Positions 2,182 to 22,508 of a stretch of 32,000 nucleotides of DNA are shown here, piece by piece (positions within the stretch are counted from its first letter, which is position 1; every line of letters begins with the position of its first letter). The stretch covers positions 450,001-482,000 of the forward strand of contig NZ_CP045921.1 in the NCBI RefSeq assembly GCF_025273655.1, written 5' to 3'. The DNA is from Candidatus Saccharimonadota bacterium (GTDB lineage Bacteria; Patescibacteriota; Saccharimonadia; Saccharimonadales; Saccharimonadaceae). A program made the position numbers and the translations under genes. Below the pieces are notes generated by a model. The model was not told where the DNA came from, did no database searches, and was given only the letters and a program-made list of their open reading frames with translations.

Positions 2182-3642
2182 ATGGCTCGCAAGTTTGTTC
2201 GTAGCACCGTTGTCGCCGGTTGCGTCGTCTGCGCTGGTCTGGCGCCCATCGCTCCGGCTTTGGCGTCGGCACAGGTCGACAACTTGACCGACGTCACGCA
2301 GTCCGACAACACCAAGAACTGGTATCCGGGTCGACCGGACTCCATGGTGATTGGCATACCTGGCACAGATGACACCAACTTCATCGCTCGTAGCCTCGGT
2401 ATCTTCGGGAATCGTGAGGCGTATCGACTCGAATACCCGGAGTCGGCTGGCCCGTTCATCGCGGGGCGGTCAGGAGAATTTTTTCTCCTCGCACCCAGCT
2501 ATGCCGAGTCATCTGCCATCGCGCGTGACAACCTCGTGGAGGCGTTGCGCCAGCTCAACGAGCAGGCGCCAGAGGGTGGTCGGAAATCGATCATCCTCGC
2601 AGGCTACTCCCAAGGTGACAAGGCGCTTTATGATGCTGCGGTGATCGCCATCGAGAAGGGTTACTTGAACGAAGACGATCTGATCGTGTTCGTCTCGTCG
2701 CCTGGCAGCCCCTGGGGACTTGCAACACAGGCGGATCAGTATCCGTTTCTGCCCCAGCTCGCGGGACTCGTTGGGTTCACGACGGGTGTCGATGATCCGA
2801 GCAAGCTCGGTGACGTGCCGTCGGAGGAGCATGTGATTGTCGGAGACTCTGTCGCCGGCTCACTGTTCAATCCGCTCAATCCGGTGGGTTCGGTGGCTGT
2901 CATCCTGGCGGGTCACCTAATTCACTCGTCGCTCACAAGCCAGAGTTACAATAATCTGGACGAGCTCGGCACGCCGACAATCTACAAGTCGGTCGACGGC
3001 AAAATGACGGTGTATGTGTATGAGGATGTACACCATCCCATCACACTCGCTGCCGAATTCGTGCTGAGCAAACTGTCTGGCGGTGCGATTCAGCTCAGCG
3101 GCGAGCAGAAGGATCAGCTCGACGTGTTTAACAACACGTGGGCGCCGATCACTCCGCTTACGGAAGACAACGCCGGAATCGAGCTCGTGAAGGTGCAGCA
3201 GGGTGACCTACCCACCTATCGCACGAGTCCGGTTCCGGCATGGAGCGTGACAGTTCCCTCGGCCGTGGCAACCGGCGCAGAGGCTCCGGCCGACGCGTCG
3301 ACGCTCACTCGGGTCGACGACATGCCTGCGCCTGCCGAGTCGGAAGTCGAGCCTGTCTCGAACCCCGATTCCTCACCCGCTCCGGTGGTTGTGGAGGAGC
3401 CTGTCTCCCCTGCGGCTCAGGAGCCCGTGTACGCGGCGCCCGAACAGCCGGTGGTGGACGATTCGAGCAGCCAGCTCGAATCACCTGCTCCAGCTACTTC
3501 GGACGTCTCATCCCAGGGTGACACGGCCGACGGTGGTTCGGATTCCGGTTCGGACGACTCGTCGTCGGATGCCTCCAGCTCGTCGGATTCGGATAACTCC
3601 GATTCTGGCATGGGCTCCGACTCGGGGAGTTCGTCGGAGTGA
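2182..3642 (+). CDS. secreted serine hydrolase, PE-PPE/cutinase-like, with Pro-rich and Ser/Asp-rich C-terminal tail
   Basis: ORF 2068..3642; I place the start at ATG 2182, with GGAAGGAG 7 nt upstream. It has the signal peptide MARKFVRSTVVAGCVVCAGLAPIAPALASA, then IGIPGT, YPESAGP, ILAGYSQGDKALYDA, VIVGDS and GHLIHSS. The last ~130 aa are low-complexity P/A/E followed by S/D/G. Confidence 0.8.
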   Translation: MARKFVRSTVVAGCVVCAGLAPIAPALASAQVDNLTDVTQSDNTKNWYPGRPDSMVIGIPGTDDTNFIARSLGIFGNREAYRLEYPESAGPFIAGRSGEFFLLAPSYAESSAIARDNLVEALRQLNEQAPEGGRKSIILAGYSQGDKALYDAAVIAIEKGYLNEDDLIVFVSSPGSPWGLATQADQYPFLPQLAGLVGFTTGVDDPSKLGDVPSEEHVIVGDSVAGSLFNPLNPVGSVAVILAGHLIHSSLTSQSYNNLDELGTPTIYKSVDGKMTVYVYEDVHHPITLAAEFVLSKLSGGAIQLSGEQKDQLDVFNNTWAPITPLTEDNAGIELVKVQQGDLPTYRTSPVPAWSVTVPSAVATGAEAPADASTLTRVDDMPAPAESEVEPVSNPDSSPAPVVVEEPVSPAAQEPVYAAPEQPVVDDSSSQLESPAPATSDVSSQGDTADGGSDSGSDDSSSDASSSSDSDNSDSGMGSDSGSSSE

Positions 3643-15488: not shown

Positions 15489-16430
15489 ATGCGAGACGGA
15501 GATCCAATGGTATACGCTGCAAATGATGAAACCGAGAGAAAACCATCAAATGTACTATATGTAGACTTTCGAGTCGGAGAAGCTGCGACTGGTGGTATCG
15601 AAGGTTCAGAAGAGCAGATCGATACAGTGCTAGAGTTTGTAAAAGGTACGCCGGAAGCATACGCGGTGTGCGAGAAGCCTGTGGTCTGTAAATGTATCGA
15701 CGGGCGAAGCGCAGAGGTAGCTACCGAAGGCCCAAACGCAGCGGGTGGGACTTTTGGCGTTGCAGCCGCAATCGATTTGGCGCGTCCAGAAGGAGTAGCG
15801 CCCGCTTCTCACGCGGAGACTTTACAGCATGTTATCTCGACACATAAGCGTGAAGATCATGATGTTGGTGGGCATACAGATACCCATGCGTCGGGTGATA
15901 ATTGTGGCTGTGGTGCCGTAGATAGGGTTGAAGAGATTTACACTAAGATTACCGACCAAGGAGAAAAGATTCGTGAACTTGCCGAAGCTATCTACGGTGA
16001 GCCGATCGACAATGCGACACATGCTCGCATACTGAGTAACGCTCAAAGCCACACGGAATTTGATACTGGGGCAAAGATTCGTAAGACATTTGAGGCGTCT
16101 ATGAGCCAGCCTGGCTCAGATACTCTCATGGAAAATCTCGAGGGTAGCCATAACGAGAAAATCGCATTGATTAACGTAGTTCCTAGCACGACGCTTAGCC
16201 GTCAAGATATGCAGAAGGTTTTGGGCAATGATCTTCAGGCCTTTAACGTTGATGCGTGGGCATTTGAAAAAACAGCCGCAAGTGTTGCAGCAAGTTCAGA
16301 AGACGCCCGCGCTATTCATATCGCGATGTTGTATTACAACGTGGCAACTGCGTTGACGCTCTGTGGTCCGAACATGCGCATTGTTGTACGTAGTGAGCAG
16401 TCTGTACCAGAAGAAGCGCGCGCAGCCTAA
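15489..16430 (+). CDS. hypothetical protein with a beta/zeta-carbonic-anhydrase-like Cys/His metal motif
   Basis: 313 aa with AGAGGA upstream. C69-I-D71-G-R73 forms a CxDxR motif. GGH129TDTHASGDNC139GC141GA gives His-x9-Cys. No signal peptide. Confidence 0.75.
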   Translation: MRDGDPMVYAANDETERKPSNVLYVDFRVGEAATGGIEGSEEQIDTVLEFVKGTPEAYAVCEKPVVCKCIDGRSAEVATEGPNAAGGTFGVAAAIDLARPEGVAPASHAETLQHVISTHKREDHDVGGHTDTHASGDNCGCGAVDRVEEIYTKITDQGEKIRELAEAIYGEPIDNATHARILSNAQSHTEFDTGAKIRKTFEASMSQPGSDTLMENLEGSHNEKIALINVVPSTTLSRQDMQKVLGNDLQAFNVDAWAFEKTAASVAASSEDARAIHIAMLYYNVATALTLCGPNMRIVVRSEQSVPEEARAA

Positions 16431-17044
16431 CTAGGGTTTGGAAGTGCCACGACGCAGGTTGTGCTCATGGCATCATAGAAAGTATTTTTTTGTGAACTTG
16501 CAGGCGTAAAATTACCCCAGGTACCGTCTATCATCTGCACAAGGCCAGGGACTTTGCAGTCCTGGTTGCTGCCTTCGAGTACGAATTGCATCACATAGGG
16601 ATTCGGCTGTCCATCCACCGTGAACCCCGACCAGTTCGTGAGGGTGATGCCGACGAACGTTACGCCACCCTCCTTAGTGACTACTTTGTTATTTCCCTCT
16701 GGGATACGTGAGAGGACCGTGCGTATGGCTGTATTGAAAGTGGCGTCTTCTTTCGTCGTATAGTCGGACCCGCCGCACGAGCCGACCGTATCGGCCCCCC
16801 GGATTGTATAACCTTGGCCGAGACATACGCTGCCAGCACCCATAGCAGGATACATATTGTTTTCGGTAACATATAGCTGGATTGATTTTTCGTAGTTGGT
16901 GGCGGCTTCGTATTTGGCAGTATTATTGGCTCGTTGCTGAATACCGTTGTATGCCACTATCGTGATAGCTGCGAGGATGCCTATTACCACGATTACGATT
17001 AATAACTCAACGATTGTAAACCCGGCCTGCCCCCTACTTTGCAT
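16427..17044 (-). CDS. type IV pilin / pseudopilin with prepilin N-terminal methylation motif
   Basis: MQSRGQAG/FTIVELLIVIVVIGILAAITIVAYNGIQQRANN is a class III signal peptide with the G/FT(I/L)xE motif. Confidence 0.9.
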   Translation of the reverse strand: MQSRGQAGFTIVELLIVIVVIGILAAITIVAYNGIQQRANNTAKYEAATNYEKSIQLYVTENNMYPAMGAGSVCLGQGYTIRGADTVGSCGGSDYTTKEDATFNTAIRTVLSRIPEGNNKVVTKEGGVTFVGITLTNWSGFTVDGQPNPYVMQFVLEGSNQDCKVPGLVQMIDGTWGNFTPASSQKNTFYDAMSTTCVVALPNPS

Positions 17045-17062
17045 ACACTTAGTATAGCAGTT

Positions 17063-18007
17063 TTAGAGATTTGCGAGGATTTTACGTACTTCTTGGGTGG
17101 TCTTTGTATGCATCAGTTTGTCACGCAGCTCGGCAGCACCTTCGAAGTCGCGCACGTAGATTTTATAGAAGCGTTTGAGCGTGTCATAGGGGCGGCCTGT
17201 CTGGCTGGAGTATTTGTCGTAGAGGTCGAGCTGTAGCCTCAGGAGGCCTAATAGTTCGTCGCGGGAGTGCGAACTAGCCGTCCGCTCAAACGCATAGGGA
17301 TTATGGAAAATACCTCGCCCGATCATCATGCCGTCTACACCTGTCTGAGTTACGAGCTCTTCGCCATGCGTACGGTCACGGATGTCACCGTTGATCGTCA
17401 GGAGCGTCTGCGGGGCGATTTCGTCGCGCAGCCGCTTGATATCGGCTATAAGTTCGTAGTGGGCCGGTACTTTGCTCATCTCCTTCTTCGTGCGCAGGTG
17501 GATAGTGAGGTTGACGATGTCTTGCTGCAGGATGTGTGTCAGCCACCCTCGCCATTCGTCTATACGACTGTAGCCGAGGCGTGTCTTGACGCTCACTGGG
17601 AGTCCGCTGGTCTTGGCGGCAGCGATGATCGCGGCGGCGTTTTCTGGATTGCAGATCATGGCTGAGCCTCCCCCGCTTTTGGTGGCGGATTTGTCTGGGC
17701 AACCCATATTGATATCGATTCCATCGTAGCTAAGCTCCACGCAGTGAGCAGCCAACTTTTCCATCGCTTCGGGGACACTTCCCCATAGCTGAGCGACAAT
17801 AGGCTGTTCGTCATCTGTCTTGACGAGTCGTCCGCCTATTGCCCGATCCCCTGCGGCCGCCCAACCAGTGGCGTTGGTAAATTCCGTAAACCATACATCT
17901 GGTGCAGCTGCTTCGGCCACGACATGGCGAAATACAACGTCAGTCACGGCTTCCATAGGAGCCAAGACGAAGAACGGTTTTGGTAGATTTGCCCAAAAGT
18001 TAGGCAC
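17063..18007 (-). CDS. dus: tRNA-dihydrouridine synthase
   Basis: GTG start. Motifs LAPMEAVTDVVFR, DINMGCP and the TIM-barrel pattern (VKTRLG, TIHLRT, NGDI) fit Dus. Confidence 0.9.
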   Translation of the reverse strand: MPNFWANLPKPFFVLAPMEAVTDVVFRHVVAEAAAPDVWFTEFTNATGWAAAGDRAIGGRLVKTDDEQPIVAQLWGSVPEAMEKLAAHCVELSYDGIDINMGCPDKSATKSGGGSAMICNPENAAAIIAAAKTSGLPVSVKTRLGYSRIDEWRGWLTHILQQDIVNLTIHLRTKKEMSKVPAHYELIADIKRLRDEIAPQTLLTINGDIRDRTHGEELVTQTGVDGMMIGRGIFHNPYAFERTASSHSRDELLGLLRLQLDLYDKYSSQTGRPYDTLKRFYKIYVRDFEGAAELRDKLMHTKTTQEVRKILANL

Positions 18008-18231
18008 TATTGTCCGTGACGGTTATTCTGATTGTCAATCGCGCGCTGCGCCGACTTGATCGCTTCGTCGCCGACGTGTCGCAGATCAATCTCTGTTGGA
18101 GGTAAATCGTCCGGGTCGACACGGTTTTCCCAGTCGCTCGCGAAATTGAGATAGCCTGGCTGGACACCTAGGTCGTCGGCTTGTTTGAGTCGATCGAGTG
18201 GATTGAAATCCGGTTCATCAAAACGTGACAT
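18007..18231 (-). CDS. hypothetical acidic protein (74 aa)
   Basis: This ORF's stop overlaps the dus GTG start by 1 nt. I recognise no family. Confidence 0.55.
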   Translation of the reverse strand: MSRFDEPDFNPLDRLKQADDLGVQPGYLNFASDWENRVDPDDLPPTEIDLRHVGDEAIKSAQRAIDNQNNRHGQ

Positions 18232-18360
18232 AATTTGTTCCTTTCATCTAACAAAACTCACATTTATATACAAATATGGGTATTGGTAGATGCAGACAGA
18301 GAGTATCCAAGCGGTGGGCCGATCCCCGGAGGGGATGTGGGGTTCGACCCACCGCGAGGG

Positions 18361-18412
18361 TAAAGCGGTCAAACGACCGCGCCTAGTGTCGGGGGACGAC
18401 ATGGCGCGGTCG
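18361..18412 (-). terminator. terminator-like GC hairpin plus T-tract (minus strand)
   Basis: On the minus strand, CGACCGCGCC pairs with GGCGCGGTCG (10 bp), enclosing the inner stem TGTCG/CGACA. TTTGACCGCTTTA follows. Confidence 0.4.
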
Positions 18413-18484
18413 CCCTTCCGCCGCAATCAGAAACCCCTGCGGATTCCTTCATACTTGAATCGACTTGCTCCCGTTGTATGGAGC

Positions 18485-18558
18485 GCATAGTGGTGGGGTT
18501 CAAACCCACGATCCTCCCTTTTTGCGGGAGAGCTTTTGATCAGCTAAGCTACACTACA
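18485..18558 (-). tRNA. tRNA-shaped element B (perfect cloverleaf stems, non-canonical anticodon and T loops)
   Basis: Minus-strand stems: acceptor TGTAGTG/CACTATG, D GCTT/AAGC, anticodon CTCCC/GGGAG, T GTGGG/CCCAC, with canonical 2-1-4-0 spacers. However, the anticodon loop is GCAAAAA (no U33), the T loop is TTTGAAC, the D loop AGCTGATCA lacks GG, and no CCA is encoded. Confidence 0.3.
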
Positions 18559-18568
18559 GTCGAAACCG

Positions 18569-18642
18569 AGGGACTGACGGGACTCGAACCCGCGCCTGTT
18601 CAGGCTCTACAGAACTGCTCTGACTCGCTAAGCTACAGCCCC
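18569..18642 (-). tRNA. tRNA-like gene A (canonical acceptor, D and T arms; irregular anticodon arm, identity unassigned)
   Basis: Minus strand: GGGGCTG TA GCTT AGCGAGTCA GAGC A ... GCGGG TTCGAGT CCCGT CAGTCCC T. U8, A14, G15/C48 and G53-TTCGA-C61 are all present. The anticodon stem fails to pair in the standard register. Confidence 0.5.
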
Positions 18643-18686
18643 GTGCTGCCGAAGCCGGTCGATGAAGTTGTGCGAGGGCCAGAAAG

Positions 18687-18842
18687 TCACCAGAAGTGGC
18701 TTCCGTGTATCTTGGCTTCCTCATGTGCCTTGTGGTCGAGGTTCTTCACCGACTGGCGGTTCAAGTGCTTGTCCACGAGCTGCTGCTCGGTGACGGTGCG
18801 CTTGCTCGGGTCCTTCTTTGCGGCGTTTTCTGCTGCGTCCAT
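18687..18842 (-). CDS. possible small protein (51 aa) embedded between the tRNA-shaped elements
   Basis: Below the track threshold. AGGTGGAAGG lies 6 nt upstream of ATG 18842. Translation: MDAAENAAKKDPSKRTVTEQQLVDKHLNRQSVKNLDHKAHEEAKIHGSHFW. The third codon positions look coding-like. Confidence 0.4.
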   Translation of the reverse strand: MDAAENAAKKDPSKRTVTEQQLVDKHLNRQSVKNLDHKAHEEAKIHGSHFW

Positions 18843-18881
18843 CACGAACCTTCCACCTGTGAGCCGCTGGTCGGCTCATCG

Positions 18882-18944
18882 CAGACATGTCAGGGGTCGA
18901 ACCTGTTACCGGGGTCTCCGGTGCTTCCGTATAAGCACATGTCT
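18882..18944 (-). ncRNA. 63-nt miniature cloverleaf C (tRNA-like, no usable anticodon loop)
   Basis: Minus-strand stems: acceptor AGACATG/CATGTCT (7 bp, perfect), GCTT/AAGC, ACCGG-AGACC-CCGGT and CAGG-TTCGACC-CCTG. Confidence 0.25.
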
Positions 18945-19223
18945 AGGCAAGTTACACTTTCCTACGTCGCAAGTGTATAACTTGCCTTTCGGCGAGAACT
19001 ACAGGACCGAAGTCTCCATATTTCTTACCAGGCAAACTAGCTGTGCCAGTTGGGTGTATCAGTAATACTATCTCTGTCTGTCAAAATGCGACAGGAAAGT
19101 ACACAGCGAGTCGCCCACGAAGCGTACCTCTTAGAAAACTCGCTATGCACACATCTGCACGAACACCATAGTACTGTTTTCTTGACGTTTCGTCAAGAGG
19201 AAGTGCGGCGCGTGATGATGAAA

Positions 19224-22200
19224 CTATATCTTGCCGTCGATAAGATCTTGCTCAAACTGGTGGATACCTTCGATCGATTGCTCGTATGCCGATGTATCGG
19301 GAAAGCTAAGATCTTGGATGTGGCGCCAGACACCGCGAATGAGCTGCGTGAAACGCTCGAGCTCGCTTGGATCTATATCGGTAAGCTCTAGTGCTACAAT
19401 CTCCCCTGCTGGATTTGGCTCTACGAACTGCAAGACACCGCGCGCCATAGTGTAGCGCTGCCATTCGCGCGAGTGTTCGATGAGAAGTTTGTAAAACAGC
19501 AGCTGCTGGCGGTATTTGTGTGCCTTCATTTTCTGGTAATCGGCTCCTTTGTCCCAGCTCGTTAGTACACCACCCGTCTTGTAATCAGTGACAGTAGCGG
19601 TCATGGCGTCGCGGTCAAATTGCACTACGTCAAGCTTGCCGGTCAGGTGCACATCGTCGAGCCAGACGTCTTGATGGTTAAAATTGAGTTCCGCTTGTTG
19701 CTCTGGTGAAAAAGTAGCGTATTTGGCGCGCAAAAACGTCCGCAGCGCATCACCTCCCTTTTGCAGGTAGAGTGCGTGTTCTTCGTCGGTAAACTGCATG
19801 CGCTCCAGCGATTTACCAAACTCATGGATGATGTCTTCTTCTGGTTGAGGGGATTTATGTGCGCGCAGATAGTCGTGAGCGCGCTGCAGCGTGGCGTGGA
19901 TGGCCGTGCCGTAATTGGCATACGGGCTTGGACTTTGCGGAAAGCGCAAAAGATTACCAAGCAGAAATGTCTGAGGACCGCCCTGCGAGACATCGATGAA
20001 CGTATTGATGTGTGTCGCGCTGAGTTTGTAACGAAAAAGCAGTGGCGCCAAATACTCGCGCATACTGCTCGTGGGGATAGATACGAGCGGCGCATACCAA
20101 GCTTGGGTGGCAGCTTCGAGATGTGAGCTATGCGCGTGCGGGTCATCGATACTTCGGCTTGGTATTGAATTGTCGAGGAGGAATCCGGCCTGGAGCATTT
20201 CCTTGGCGCTGTCATTTTCGCGCGCATACGAGATGCGAAGTGTGTAGCGAGCTCGCGTCATAGCAACATAAAACAAGCGAAGGCGTTCGTCGTAGTTGCC
20301 GGCATTGCGACTGAGGCGGAGATTTGGTGGATACATGATGGTGTCGGCACGTCCCCGGGCTTTTTCACCCCACATAGCATCGGTGGCGTTGACGATGAAC
20401 ACGTGGTCAAATTCCAGGCCCTTGGAGCTGTGCGCAGATAACAGCCGAACGGCATCGGCATCTTGTCCGACGTGACGCAAGCTGGTGATGTGAGTATCGG
20501 TGTCGCGGTTTTGCTGGATGAAGCCCAGAAAATCTGCCAGACGCGGTGATGTCATGTCGATCTCATGCTCGCGTAGCCGTGCGCGGATAGCAGTGAGGTT
20601 TTCTAGGTGCATGATATAGCGTGAGGCATCTTGCTCGAACTCTGCAACCGGGAAGAAGTAGTCGCGGAGTGGCGACACATACTCTGTCTCGAGTTTAGTC
20701 GTGCCAAGCAGCACGTCAACCATACGCTCTAGCGGCATGTGCTCCGACTCTTTGGCGCATGACTGGAGCCACACCCAGAATGGATGCATGTGTTCGTGGT
20801 GACGCATGGTTTCTAGCCAGCTTTGATGCGTGTTACTGGCTTTGACGCTAATCTCCCAGAGCGTCTCTGGAGCTACTCGCCAAGCAGGGTGACTCAGTAG
20901 CTCTGGTAGCAGCGCATTAGCCTCCGCATGGTCGCCGCGCGCAAGTGCTACTACTATGAGTCCGATGTGTTCGAGCTGACGCACTGCTTCATCGTCGAGC
21001 ACATTGTCGCGTCTGTCATAGCTGACAGGTATGTCTTTCTCGCTCAAGTAGCCAAGCAATGCCACGAGATCTTTGTGCTGACGTGCGATCACGGCGATAG
21101 ATTCTGGTGCCGCACCACCAGCAAGTAGCTGTTTGATCTCATGTGCGATCTGACCGCGCTCTGCATCGGGGGTGGCCAGCTCAACTATCTCTACAAAAGC
21201 GGCATCTGTCTCGGTATGTGGTGTGAGTGTTTTGTCTAGACCGGCAATCGTTGTCTCAAGTCGCTCACTGGCCTGCACGATCACTTCGCGTGCGGCCGCG
21301 AGAACTGGTGCAACACTACGGTAGTTGTCGCGTAACGTAATCTGCGTAGTGGTTGGGTAGAGCTGGCTAAACTTGATAATGTTACCTACTTCGGCACCCT
21401 GAAATCCGTAGATGGCCTGGTCGTCGTCACCTACCACGAGGATATTCGGCGAATCTTCGACGATTGGATTGTTGGTGAGATTGCGCAAGATACGCATCTG
21501 CGCCAAGTTGGTGTCTTGGAACTCGTCGACCATGATGTAATGGTATTTTTCTTGGAGCTCGTAGCGTAGCTCGGGGTTTACTTCTATGGCATGCACGACT
21601 TGCATGATCATGTCGTCGAAATCGATCAGTTCGGCCGCTTGCATGATAGCTAGATATTGGCTGTAAATCTGGCTTAGCGCACGCAGCTTGGGTTGGTATT
21701 TGGTGGCTTTCAGGATCGGCTTTTTGTCGGCGGAAACCGTCATCCATTCACGTTTCCAAGCAGTGAGAGGTGGTGTAATCTTTGGATGTGCGTCGGCGTC
21801 ATCTAGTGCCCGCTGGAGGCTACTTGCCAGTATTCCTGATAGAGGCTGGAGCGTATCGAGCGGCATGGCTTCACCTATATCGGCTATCTTGGGTATGATA
21901 TTGGCTAGTTTATCGCGTGTTGCTTTGCTGATACGGTCCGTAAACGCATCTGCGACCAGAGCGCTTGCAATCTCGAGCGCTTCATCTGTCGCATCGAGCA
22001 GCTTGGCAAATTCGGCGTCTGTGAGACTTGCGCGCTTGAGATCGGAAATTGCCTTGATAATGTCACCGATTGCGGTATATTGTCCATTCATCTTGCTGGT
22101 GAGTGGATTATTGTACGGCAGTGTATCTAGGATACTCGTGATGATACGGTGCACAGAGAGTGTGTCGGCCGGGCGAAACTCTGCACCGCGGTAGAAATAC

Positions 22201-22508
22201 TCACGGTAGCGACTCATGATTTCGGTACCGAACGCATGGAAAGTGTAAATCGACACGTTGTAGGCGTCACGGCCGATGATGCTCGTCAGACGCTTCTGCA
22301 TGGCGACAGAGCCACTTTCGGTAAACGTAAGGCACAAGATATTTTCTGGCAGCTCATCTGTTTTGCGCAGTATATTTGCCGCACGCATACTGAGTAGCTC
22401 GGTCTTGCCTGTACCCGGCCCTGCCACCACCATCACAGGCCCGTCTATCGTATCGACAGCTTGTTTCTGTGCGGCATTCAGATTTTTGTAGCGGGCGTCG
22501 AAATCCAT
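19224..22508 (-). CDS. UvrD/PcrA-type SF1 DNA helicase fused to a C-terminal PD-(D/E)xK (RecB-family) nuclease
   Basis: 1094 aa with Walker A GPGTGKT, motif II MVDEFQDTN, and VGDDDQAIYGFQGA. The C-terminus carries TVTDYKTGG and QLLFYKLL (QxxxY), the RecB nuclease motifs. Confidence 0.9.
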   Translation of the reverse strand: MDFDARYKNLNAAQKQAVDTIDGPVMVVAGPGTGKTELLSMRAANILRKTDELPENILCLTFTESGSVAMQKRLTSIIGRDAYNVSIYTFHAFGTEIMSRYREYFYRGAEFRPADTLSVHRIITSILDTLPYNNPLTSKMNGQYTAIGDIIKAISDLKRASLTDAEFAKLLDATDEALEIASALVADAFTDRISKATRDKLANIIPKIADIGEAMPLDTLQPLSGILASSLQRALDDADAHPKITPPLTAWKREWMTVSADKKPILKATKYQPKLRALSQIYSQYLAIMQAAELIDFDDMIMQVVHAIEVNPELRYELQEKYHYIMVDEFQDTNLAQMRILRNLTNNPIVEDSPNILVVGDDDQAIYGFQGAEVGNIIKFSQLYPTTTQITLRDNYRSVAPVLAAAREVIVQASERLETTIAGLDKTLTPHTETDAAFVEIVELATPDAERGQIAHEIKQLLAGGAAPESIAVIARQHKDLVALLGYLSEKDIPVSYDRRDNVLDDEAVRQLEHIGLIVVALARGDHAEANALLPELLSHPAWRVAPETLWEISVKASNTHQSWLETMRHHEHMHPFWVWLQSCAKESEHMPLERMVDVLLGTTKLETEYVSPLRDYFFPVAEFEQDASRYIMHLENLTAIRARLREHEIDMTSPRLADFLGFIQQNRDTDTHITSLRHVGQDADAVRLLSAHSSKGLEFDHVFIVNATDAMWGEKARGRADTIMYPPNLRLSRNAGNYDERLRLFYVAMTRARYTLRISYARENDSAKEMLQAGFLLDNSIPSRSIDDPHAHSSHLEAATQAWYAPLVSIPTSSMREYLAPLLFRYKLSATHINTFIDVSQGGPQTFLLGNLLRFPQSPSPYANYGTAIHATLQRAHDYLRAHKSPQPEEDIIHEFGKSLERMQFTDEEHALYLQKGGDALRTFLRAKYATFSPEQQAELNFNHQDVWLDDVHLTGKLDVVQFDRDAMTATVTDYKTGGVLTSWDKGADYQKMKAHKYRQQLLFYKLLIEHSREWQRYTMARGVLQFVEPNPAGEIVALELTDIDPSELERFTQLIRGVWRHIQDLSFPDTSAYEQSIEGIHQFEQDLIDGKI

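Follow-up and report, generated by a model that had tools for sequence, protein, structure and literature searches.

Mostly non-decoding tRNA-like modules in a predicted RNA unit between addA and dus of Saccharibacteria

The 32,000-nucleotide (nt) stretch of a Candidatus Saccharimonadota genome analyzed here (contig NZ_CP045921.1, positions 450,001 to 482,000; hereafter the window) contains, on the minus strand of the spacer between the genes addA and dus, three tRNA-shaped elements, A, B and C, whose anticodon arms are not those of decoding tRNAs. Elements of this kind occur at the same place across much of the Saccharibacteria, inside a unit with a predicted promoter of its own, an ultraconserved leader and ends that pair with each other over several hundred nucleotides. 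In the reading that is tentatively favored here, A, B and C are tRNA-derived, non-decoding 't-elements' that would serve ribonuclease P (RNase P) and a 3' endonuclease as cutting or stability signals. We rate the locus as a previously undescribed class-wide RNA unit and as a bacterial counterpart of the known kind of t-element; searches of the literature on tRNA-like elements in combination with Saccharibacteria, with the CPR (candidate phyla radiation) or with dihydrouridine synthase found no earlier description of the locus or of the elements.

The spacer is flanked by genes for an AddA-type helicase-nuclease (19224–22508, minus strand) and for the dihydrouridine synthase Dus (17063–18007, minus strand). 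Candidatus Mycosynbacter amalyticus, a Saccharibacterium (TM7, CPR) in culture, has a Dus protein 100% identical to the one encoded in the window. With Dus as the anchor, 80 related Saccharibacteria loci were fetched (Dus identity 59–84%; single loci are given L numbers below), and nearly all of them keep the gene order addA, 0.45–1.7 kb without long open reading frames (ORFs), dus. R1, a covariance model derived from the tRNA-like elements of these relatives, was searched against 540 kb on both strands, a strand-specific space of which the addA–dus spacer makes up ~6%, and its matches were counted at E<=1. The Rfam tRNA family (RF00005), with a gathering score of 29 bits, was used alongside it. 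Statistics on stems, loops and ends refer to 60 elements aligned to the model, and the genus-level comparison comprises eight loci (the window, L084, L082, L086, L088, L002, L153 and L154). A metagenome scan with a 17-nt word from the leader returned 64 loci, only three of which were genuine. The three elements are as follows.

18569–18642, minus strand: element A, tRNA-like module with a full frame (Rfam tRNA model, 48.9 bits; R1, 61.0 bits; called by ARAGORN)
18485–18558, minus strand: element B, tRNA-like module with a weak acceptor top (Rfam, 35.9 bits; R1, 49.7 bits; ARAGORN call Phe(aaa))
18882–18944, minus strand: element C, 63-nt mini tRNA-like module (R1, 24.1 bits, E=3e-4; cloverleaf in the minimum-free-energy (MFE) fold)

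The first-pass annotation, made from the sequence alone, had described tRNA-shaped elements with abnormal anticodon loops at this locus, and the description stands. In the whole 32 kb, ARAGORN calls exactly two tRNA-like genes, both abnormal, namely A as tRNA-??? with a 4-base 'anticodon' agag (18568–18642) and B as tRNA-Phe(aaa) (18485–18558); both pass the Rfam threshold. In the Rfam alignment the anticodon arm of A consists only of a 4-base-pair (bp) GUUC/GAAC stem round 10 unaligned bases. Where an ordinary arm would be, A thus has this stem with a 10-nt (or 8-nt) loop, and a pyrimidine where position 37 would fall. Its acceptor, its D stem and its T arm are as they had been listed, the acceptor being sound and the T loop canonical. 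Element B has the anticodon loop GCAAAAA (G32, C33) with an A34 that looks unmodifiable, the T loop UUUGAAC (U56) and an acceptor that begins U1.G72, G2.U71. The D loops, AGCGAGUCA in A and AGCUGAUCA in B, are both without GG, and B has no G19; every detail that had been listed for A and B is present in the sequence. Element C is matched neither by ARAGORN nor by Rfam at E<=10. The 63-nt mini-cloverleaf with a 5-nt loop that had been drawn for it by hand is nevertheless recovered by R1 and by the unconstrained MFE fold of the 913-nt transcript (z-score −6.9 versus shuffles), in which C has an 8-bp acceptor, a 4-bp D arm, a 5-bp arm with a 5-nt loop and the T loop UUCGACC. None of the three encodes CCA, as had been noted, and all three fail a test for decoding tRNAs (5-bp stem, 7-nt loop, U33, purine 37). 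An acceptor/T-arm stack of the t-element type is present in each of them, in B with the variant UUUGAAC.

The other hairpins that had been listed are all found in the MFE fold, at 18987–18945 (13 bp), 18415–18371 (13 bp) and 18355–18311 (12 bp). The repeat at 18337–18353 on the minus strand (GGUGGGUCGAACCCCAC), which had been taken as T-arm-like, does resemble a T arm, but its loop has 5 nt and it lies within the 12-bp hairpin 18355–18311; it may be the remnant of a fourth module.

In the genus-level loci a module stands at the position of A, after a GGCRGCAC motif, in every case. Element C sits within a block that aligns at 90% to L084, where a fuller element occupies the same place (L084 1679–1746). 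Element B has no counterpart in the sister strains and is an extra copy seen only in the window.

Alignment across related genomes, which the first-pass annotation had proposed as a check, finds the locus conserved. All 75 R1 matches (75/75) lie on the dus strand inside the addA–dus spacer, and a scanner for strict frames (acceptor paired 7/7, D stem of 4 bp, T stem paired 5/5, T loop TTYRANN) gives 50 matches on the dus strand versus one on the other. Of the 70 complete spacers, 46 have at least one R1 match; 33 of these loci have a single match, 10 have two, 2 have three and 1 has five. The Rfam tRNA model supports 23 of the elements in 20 loci; no other Rfam family matches the spacers of the relatives, nor the window apart from weak, chance-level matches. 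The 'anticodons' that ARAGORN reports in the relatives are arbitrary (aaa, atc, aat, acc, aac, as well as 2- and 4-base calls), and the labels given by ARAGORN and Rfam include tRNA-Phe(AAA), Val, Gly, Pro and others.

The cloverleaf frame is kept while the anticodon arm is not. Pairing extends to 96.7% of the stem cells in the 60 elements and to 99% in the acceptor and in the T arm alike, percentages that lean high as the alignment was fitted to the model; both sides change in 19 of 21 stem pairs, which 0 of 500 shuffles reach, and double-change cells number 331. The elbow is likewise retained, with GG in the D loop of 55/60 and UUYRA in the T loop of 58/60. A lenient test of the anticodon arm (5-bp stem with at least 4 pairs, 7-nt loop, U33, R37) is passed by only 11 of the 60 and failed by 49. 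Terminal loops have 3 nt in 14 elements, 4 nt in 18 and 5 nt in 12 (44/60), and the anticodon arm together with the variable region, i.e., the part between the D and T arms, spans 18–107 nt. Rather than eroding, these arms have been remade into stable tetraloop hairpins or long helices; some carry GNRA tetraloops, as in L060, or insertions of up to ~90 nt, and L088 has the palindromic CCGGCACGUGCCGG. Their sequences are not conserved between lineages.

The ends of the modules follow a pattern of their own. Position 74, which lies outside the covariance model, is C in 57/60 (including 18568, which follows A), B being one of the three exceptions, whereas position 75 is C in 16/60, position 76 is A in 19/60 and CCA is complete in 6/60 (L029, L063, L055, L056, L058 and TLS1 of L084). 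The discriminator base is not constant (A 36, G 13, U 9, C 2), and G3.U70 occurs in 2/60. The constraint on C74 hints at recognition by a processing enzyme.

The relation to tRNA genes is visible within the genus. The tRNA-Gln(UUG) of the same genome has a canonical loop, G18G19, the T loop UUCGAAU, an encoded CCA and a terminator; it is the single case (n=1) on which the statement that genuine tRNAs encode CCA rests. In L088 and L082 the first module, TLS1, is plainly paralogous to this tRNA-Gln type, with a 4-nt loop substituted for the anticodon loop. This paralogy, together with the lost decoding features, indicates that the modules are derived from tRNA genes but are no longer decoders. 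Positional counterparts in sister strains have the loops CUCGUAA, a 3-nt loop, CCCAA, UAAACAC and UUCAAAA; as 3- and 4-nt loops occur among these counterparts, no decoding function is conserved.

Judging from these substitution patterns, the module frames are under selection. In Nanosynbacter, a module with a 30-nt extended arm, an almost invariant apical GACAACGRUGUC and the conserved 5' flank GAAUCACA is found in L035, L036, L047, L048, L051, L054, L065, L076 and L080 (e.g., L035 2464–2552). These nine orthologous long-arm modules are 82–92% identical between sub-clades with an invariant T arm, whereas third-codon positions of dus are 43–51% identical in the same comparison and the next 100 nt are non-homologous. 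Nanosynbacter also has a second module, without a D arm, ~200 nt downstream, which ends ~177 nt before dus; a related D-arm-less module of other Nanosynbacter (L055, L056, L058 and L062) encodes CCA.

The 0.8-kb locus in which A, B and C lie is, on the sequence evidence, a transcription unit of its own and not a leader of dus, presumably transcribed from the predicted promoter. Its outer parts are the following.

19168–19196, minus strand: sigma-70-type promoter, TTGACG-17 nt-TACTAT, 28 nt past the addA stop codon (promoter scan)
19062–19162, minus strand: ultraconserved 5' leader, with a GYRCAGAKGUGUG start, the P1 hairpin (19150–19099) and then ACUUUCCUGUC (fold; leader alignment)
19065–19080, minus strand: 5' strand of the closing helix, CAGACAGAGA, then a UA bulge, then GUAU (fold; covariation)
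18293–18306, minus strand: 3' strand of the closing helix, AUAC-UCUCUGUCUG (fold; covariation)
18250–18278, minus strand: 3' AU-rich hairpin, then AGUUUUGUU, just before the Shine–Dalgarno (SD) sequence of orf74–dus (fold)

A TTGAC(N17-20)TANNNT promoter stands at the same place in 46 related loci. Promoter and leader are 98.5% identical between the window and L082, compared with 77% for addA and 81% for dus; no Rfam family matches the leader. In the unconstrained MFE fold, 19080–19071 pairs with 18302–18293 over a span of 787 nt, and in the consensus of the relatives GACAGGARUAGUG pairs with CACUAYUCCUGUC several hundred nucleotides downstream. The helix of the relatives has 12 bp and is 98.5% paired in 17 sequence variants from >26 loci; 9 of its 12 pairs change on both sides, G.U pairs occur, and 0 of 500 shuffles reach the pairing or the covariation score, with some circularity in these figures since the strands were hand-anchored on the ACAG and CUGU motifs. 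RNAduplex applied to the whole 5' versus the whole 3' region gave meaningless full-length duplexes no better than those of shuffles, and in a generic search for the best complementary 16-mers the background equaled the signal, so that only the motif-anchored strands gave a clean covariation test. At the other end, the 3' closing strand with the hairpin that follows is 92% identical between the window and L086, and the flanking genes are 74–75% identical. The two closing strands fall at the ends of the interval (18286–19075) that the first-pass annotation had marked out as hairpin-dense; the class-wide, separately promoted unit that they delimit goes beyond what it had described.

The GACAGG... 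strand may also pair with a nearby upstream ...CCUGUC copy instead of the distal 3' copy. This alternative pairing could form in the window and in the leaders of L016, L020, L034 and L042, where the local hairpin reaches 11 bp (L042), and it is possible that the two pairings form a conformational switch at the base of the RNA. Two or three tandem units, each with its own promoter and closing helix, are present in L015, L018 and L069; in L018 the small ORF is in the first unit and a tRNA-like module in the second. Between the addA stop codon and the promoter of the unit, L082/L083 (~900–1430) have an extra insert of ~0.5 kb that contains a 79-aa ORF as well as long inverted repeats and is absent from the window.

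The 3' boundary differs between lineages. The hairpin at 18250–18278, which is kept in L088 with a compensatory extension, might by its predicted fold be a weak terminator or a stability hairpin. Many other lineages have a strong terminator here, CGUCUCACAG...CUGUGAGACGUUUUAUUUU (...CUGUGAGRCGUUUUAUUUU). In the genus of the window only the weak AU hairpin, with a U-run behind it, separates the unit from orf74–dus, and read-through is therefore possible there. In L010 and L012 the terminator is followed directly by TATAAT 7–9 nt before the dus ATG (2985–3003 in each), and dus may be made as a leaderless mRNA in these lineages. That all matches lie upstream of dus had prompted the idea of a dus leader, or of autoregulation through a mimic of the Dus substrate; it was dropped because in many lineages the spacer holds a terminator and a separate dus promoter, with its −10 element just ahead of the dus ATG, and because dus located outside the addA context (L072, L075 and L077) has no module. 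In the window, orf74 (18007–18231, minus strand) overlaps the dus start codon, and sister strains have unrelated ORFs there (54 aa in L084). ORFs just upstream of dus are also found in L011, L016, L031, L034 and L042, and several distant lineages share a C-terminal P[ED]GL[ST][YF]SA.

Between the closing strands, the window has the following parts in addition to the modules.

18945–18987, minus strand: long hairpin (13–15 bp) directly 5' of C (fold; an equivalent precedes the first module in L084 and L082)
18861–18877, minus strand: hairpin of the 5' untranslated region, GAGCCG-ACCA-GCGGCUC, 4 nt past C (8/8 genus-level loci)
18687–18845, minus strand: small ORF (orf52) of 51 codons (ATG 18842) or 52 codons (GTG 18845), preceded by GGUGGAAGG (ORF list)
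18311–18448, minus strand: three GC-rich hairpins, 18448–18429, 18422–18364 and 18355–18311 (fold; unalignable with L084)

The layout of the genus is constant: leader, long hairpin, module 1, 3–5 nt, a hairpin GAGYC...GRCUC (8/8 genus-level loci, with compensatory changes), SD sequence and ORF, followed by a hairpin GUCCGC...GCGGCAC, 2 nt, module 2, hairpins and the closing strand. In the window module 1 is C, which ends 36 nt (GTG 18845) or 39 nt (ATG 18842) before orf52, and module 2 is A, which begins 44 nt past the orf52 stop codon. A hairpin-capped ORF is thus bracketed by two modules in 8/8 genus-level loci despite differing ORF families and modules. The orf52 product is the NCBI hypothetical protein GII36_02605, with homologues in L005, L023, L027, L060 and L069; differences from L084 at codon positions 1/2/3 number 2/2/6, a third-position bias that supports coding. 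Across the relatives the interior usually holds one ORF of 40–60 codons with a strong SD sequence, drawn from at least four unrelated families (the orf52 type, a 'KAI..QAGS.G' type, a DnaJ-like CxxCxGxG type and a zinc-ribbon-like type). Pfam searches with ten of the small ORFs gave nothing at threshold, with weak zinc-ribbon or DnaJ-CXXCXGXG hints for the Cys-rich type.

Within the genus this interior is exchanged rapidly. It cannot be aligned between the window and L082, L086 or L088, and alignment with L084 is lost from 18628 to 18302, i.e., from the body of A through B and the hairpins, though dus is 98.8% identical. The comparison of 16501–20599 with L084 is a mosaic, in which addA, the leader, orf52 and the 5' end of A (20599–18628) are 90% identical, and dus with the region downstream of it 98.8%. 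This mosaic suggests recent recombination between strains at the locus.

These parts can be joined into a mechanism along the lines of the tentatively favored reading. The locus would yield a structured transcript of ~0.9 kb whose conserved 5' and 3' ends pair across ~790 nt and enclose a variable interior of GC-rich hairpins, 0–5 tRNA-like modules and usually one small ORF. The modules would have retained what tRNA end-processing enzymes read, namely the acceptor/T-arm stack, the D/T elbow and C74, and lost what the ribosome and most synthetases read, namely the anticodon loop and CCA. From the retained features we propose that RNase P cleaves modules on their 5' side; a 3' endonuclease, RNase Z or another, would cut behind N73/C74. 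In this genus, cleavage of module 2 at G1 and of module 1 behind position 73/74 would free a small mRNA that begins a few nucleotides before the 5' hairpin and ends at the base of the 3' hairpin, with a hairpin at each end, and the modules themselves might also act as nuclease-resistant folding blocks. What the sequence comparison shows is the structures with their conservation and covariation, how the unit is built and that it is non-decoding; promoter use, RNase P/Z cleavage and the stabilizing effect are what we infer.

Several observations weigh against this proposal. Within the window, the hairpin that precedes A is weakened, and B, with its weak acceptor top, is the most degenerate-looking of the three. 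Position −1 shows no preference for U (A 28, C 18, G 9, U 5). Outside the genus, the distance between module and ORF ranges from 25 to 500 nt, and a module possibly stands on one side only. Modules without a detected ORF occur in L009, L010 and L012, which means that mRNA release is not their sole role. Conversely, ~15–19 of the 70 complete spacers have the unit and no detectable module, indicating that modules are dispensable or replaceable by plain hairpins; among the 24 loci without a model match, a relaxed minihelix scan found only three clear degenerate modules (L056, L073 and L079), its matches in L066/L067 being spurious. The conserved apical loop GACAACGRUGUC of Nanosynbacter points to recognition beyond the tRNA shape. 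The model-fitted stem percentages and the hand-anchored closing strands described above belong on this side as well, as does a preprint on the TM7x transcriptome, which states no validated small RNAs. Units without modules, modules without ORFs and loose spacing together imply that modules are optional and interchangeable with plain hairpins, and they may have more than one role.

Besides processing punctuation, the first-pass annotation had offered mis-folded ordinary tRNAs, decayed pseudogenes and other kinds of mimic. Mis-folding is rejected, as ARAGORN and Infernal both reproduce the abnormal loops while tRNA-Gln is canonical by contrast. That A and B decode nonetheless, A with its expanded loop as a quadruplet tRNA or frameshift suppressor and B as tRNA-Phe(AAA), would agree with the ARAGORN and Rfam calls and with the canonical T loop and sound acceptor of A. 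This is scarcely credible, given the 4-bp stem, 10-nt loop and pyrimidine 37 of A, the G32, C33, unmodifiable-looking A34, U56, U1.G72 and missing G19 of B, the lack of CCA in both when the genome's tRNA-Gln encodes it, the sister-strain counterparts with 3- and 4-nt loops and the arbitrary 'anticodons' of the whole family. Relics are a stronger contender, although still an unlikely one: copies of tRNA genes, formerly present in the spacer or still arriving there, would lose their anticodon loops and drift; they would be functionless and survive only through their youth or by hitch-hiking in a recombining region. The tRNA-gene origin that this requires is borne out, since TLS1 of L088 and L082 matches the genome's tRNA-Gln type, and it would suit the rapid turnover that leaves the A/B region unalignable with a strain of 98.8% identical dus, the degenerate B (U1.G72, G2.U71, no G19) confined to the window, the 15–19 of 70 units without modules and the canonical-looking loops still present in 11/60. 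The decay itself is harder to sustain, because it should strike stems like loops, yet the stems are 96.7% paired with 331 double-change cells, arms are rebuilt as tetraloop hairpins or long helices, and a module stands at the same two positions in 8/8 genus-level loci although its sequence has been replaced. Neutral decay is therefore disfavored; in particular, it fails to explain why Nanosynbacter elements are more conserved than the dus coding sequence and why C74 is kept in 57/60 while C75 and A76 drifted.

A further alternative, decidedly unlikely in our view, is that the modules act in trans after excision, as small-RNA mimics of tRNA that would serve as decoys or regulators of tRNA-binding proteins (candidates being Dus next door, TruB/TrmA, RNase P, the CCA-adding enzyme and EF-Tu) or as non-translational aminoacyl carriers. 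The conserved elbow and acceptor, the CCA encoded by some copies, the conserved apical loop of the Nanosynbacter long arm, the units without an ORF and the class-wide proximity to dus would all fit. Shared identity elements are, on the other hand, missing (variable discriminator, G3.U70 in 2/60, CCA in 6/60), arm sequences are unconserved between lineages, about a quarter of lineages have no modules, and dus in another context has none beside it. Of the mimic roles proposed earlier, the decoy and carrier functions thus gain little support, and processing punctuation, with the ORF bracketed in 8/8 genus-level loci, is the best supported. It is very unlikely that the locus is primarily a DNA-level feature, namely a small exchangeable cassette whose conserved ends would be att-like sites or arms for recombination, with the tRNA-like pieces as scars left by integration or as its targets. 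Such a cassette could account for ends that are 98.5% and 92% conserved round a non-homologous interior in close strains, for the mosaic identity (dus 98.8% versus addA 90%), for at least four unrelated small-ORF families in one slot and for the tandem units in three loci. But the closing helix admits G.U pairs and shows covariation at the RNA level, and the modules, all in one orientation, are whole cloverleaves and not duplicated 3' halves. The window genes scanned gave no integrase or recombinase domain, and in the relatives the spacer lies directly between addA and dus; moreover, exchange of the cassette by ordinary homologous recombination is compatible with the t-element reading.

A broader version of the t-element reading is possible, although we consider it doubtful: the locus might be a class-wide dual-function RNA, in which a clamped leader and tail surround exchangeable cargo, small protein and tRNA mimic, matured or regulated by tRNA-processing enzymes. 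The swapping of cargo between strains with 98.8% identical dus suggests diversifying or conflict-driven selection in these epibionts, and the conserved apical loops in some lineages suggest that the mimics may also have a trans-acting partner.

Processing signals of the tRNA-like kind are established in organelles, archaea and vertebrate long non-coding RNAs (lncRNAs) and are barely documented on bacterial chromosomes. If the t-element reading is true, the unit would supply one from bacteria, and one that much of a class has conserved, in the CPR/Patescibacteria, whose genomes are ~94% coding according to a preprint on TM7x. The tRNA calls of ARAGORN and Rfam at such loci may inflate or distort the tRNA inventories of Saccharibacteria and inferences on codon usage. 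As M. amalyticus and TM7x are cultivable, the bracketed, hairpin-capped small ORFs can be used to study the stability and maturation of small-protein mRNAs in minimal genomes, and the conserved ends with their swapped interior record recombination at the strain level.

The surrounding DNA is cellular, not viral. Its genes include an F-type ATP synthase operon, a glycogen-branching-type amylase and a TrmA-like methyltransferase, and a phage collection searched with blastn gave no relevant matches. A CDCA-type (cadmium-carbonic-anhydrase) repeat protein encoded at 15489–16430 (plus strand), convergent to the dus operon, adjoins dus in many Saccharibacteria.

Among known RNAs, several combine a tRNA-like part with other functions. 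YrlA, a bacterial non-coding RNA of the Y-RNA-like kind, combines an anticodon-free tRNA mimic with a stem of paired 5' and 3' ends; it has ~110–130 nt, is permuted, with a Ro-binding stem in place of the anticodon stem and a loop-closed acceptor, and is linked to rsr. The present locus differs in that no rsr neighbor is seen among the window genes and no match to an Rfam family other than tRNA exceeds weak, chance-level scores. Transfer-messenger RNA (tmRNA) is likewise a bacterial RNA with a tRNA-like part, a structured body, a short ORF and paired 5' and 3' ends, but the acceptor of tmRNA is made by the paired ends, its ORF lacks both start codon and SD sequence, and it requires the alanine identity G3.U70, whereas the modules here are internal and complete and the ORF has an SD sequence and ATG. 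The locus was accordingly rejected as a tmRNA, there being no ARAGORN or Rfam tmRNA call and G3.U70 in only 2/60. Genuine tRNA genes are co-transcribed with mRNAs in the tRNA punctuation of animal mitochondria and in the tyrT–tpr and tufB operons of E. coli. There, as predicted here, tRNA-shaped units flank coding RNA in one precursor, from which RNase P and 3' nucleases take them out. The units there do decode, whereas 49 of the 60 elements here fail the anticodon-arm test.

Closer in kind are modules that have given up decoding. The locus shares with mascRNA and the MEN-beta module of the vertebrate nuclear lncRNAs MALAT1 and NEAT1 the plan of a long RNA with, downstream of it, a tRNA-like module that has no decoding anticodon; in MALAT1/NEAT1, cleavage by RNase P forms the 3' end of the upstream RNA and releases the module. 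Part of A scores 20.0 bits (E=0.45) with the mascRNA-menRNA family (RF01684), whose gathering score is 42.5, and the match was rejected. In prokaryotes, tRNA-like elements of Haloferax volcanii are said to be cut by RNase P and tRNase Z; they are reportedly used as processing handles for these enzymes and can define the 5' end of the downstream RNA. The likeness lies in the prokaryotic tRNA-like structures, cleavage being a feature of the Haloferax elements, which are archaeal and are not known to lie in a conserved multi-module unit, with no long-range closure or hypervariable cargo described.

The nearest parallel is with the t-elements of plant mitochondria, which direct RNase Z and RNase P cuts that form the 5' and 3' ends of mRNAs, and which after release can receive an additional C or CCA (Forner et al., 2007; PMC1920247). 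Both are non-canonical cloverleaves derived from tRNA genes, with a well-kept GGTTCRANYCC T arm, and both stand directly 5' or 3' of mRNAs. The plant elements are organellar, scattered singly and experimentally mapped, whereas those described here are predicted from the sequence of a free bacterial (CPR) chromosome. Unlike the plant elements, they are gathered, in 0–5 copies and with arms rebuilt as tetraloops or long helices, within one syntenic unit that has a predicted promoter of its own and is closed by a long-range helix.

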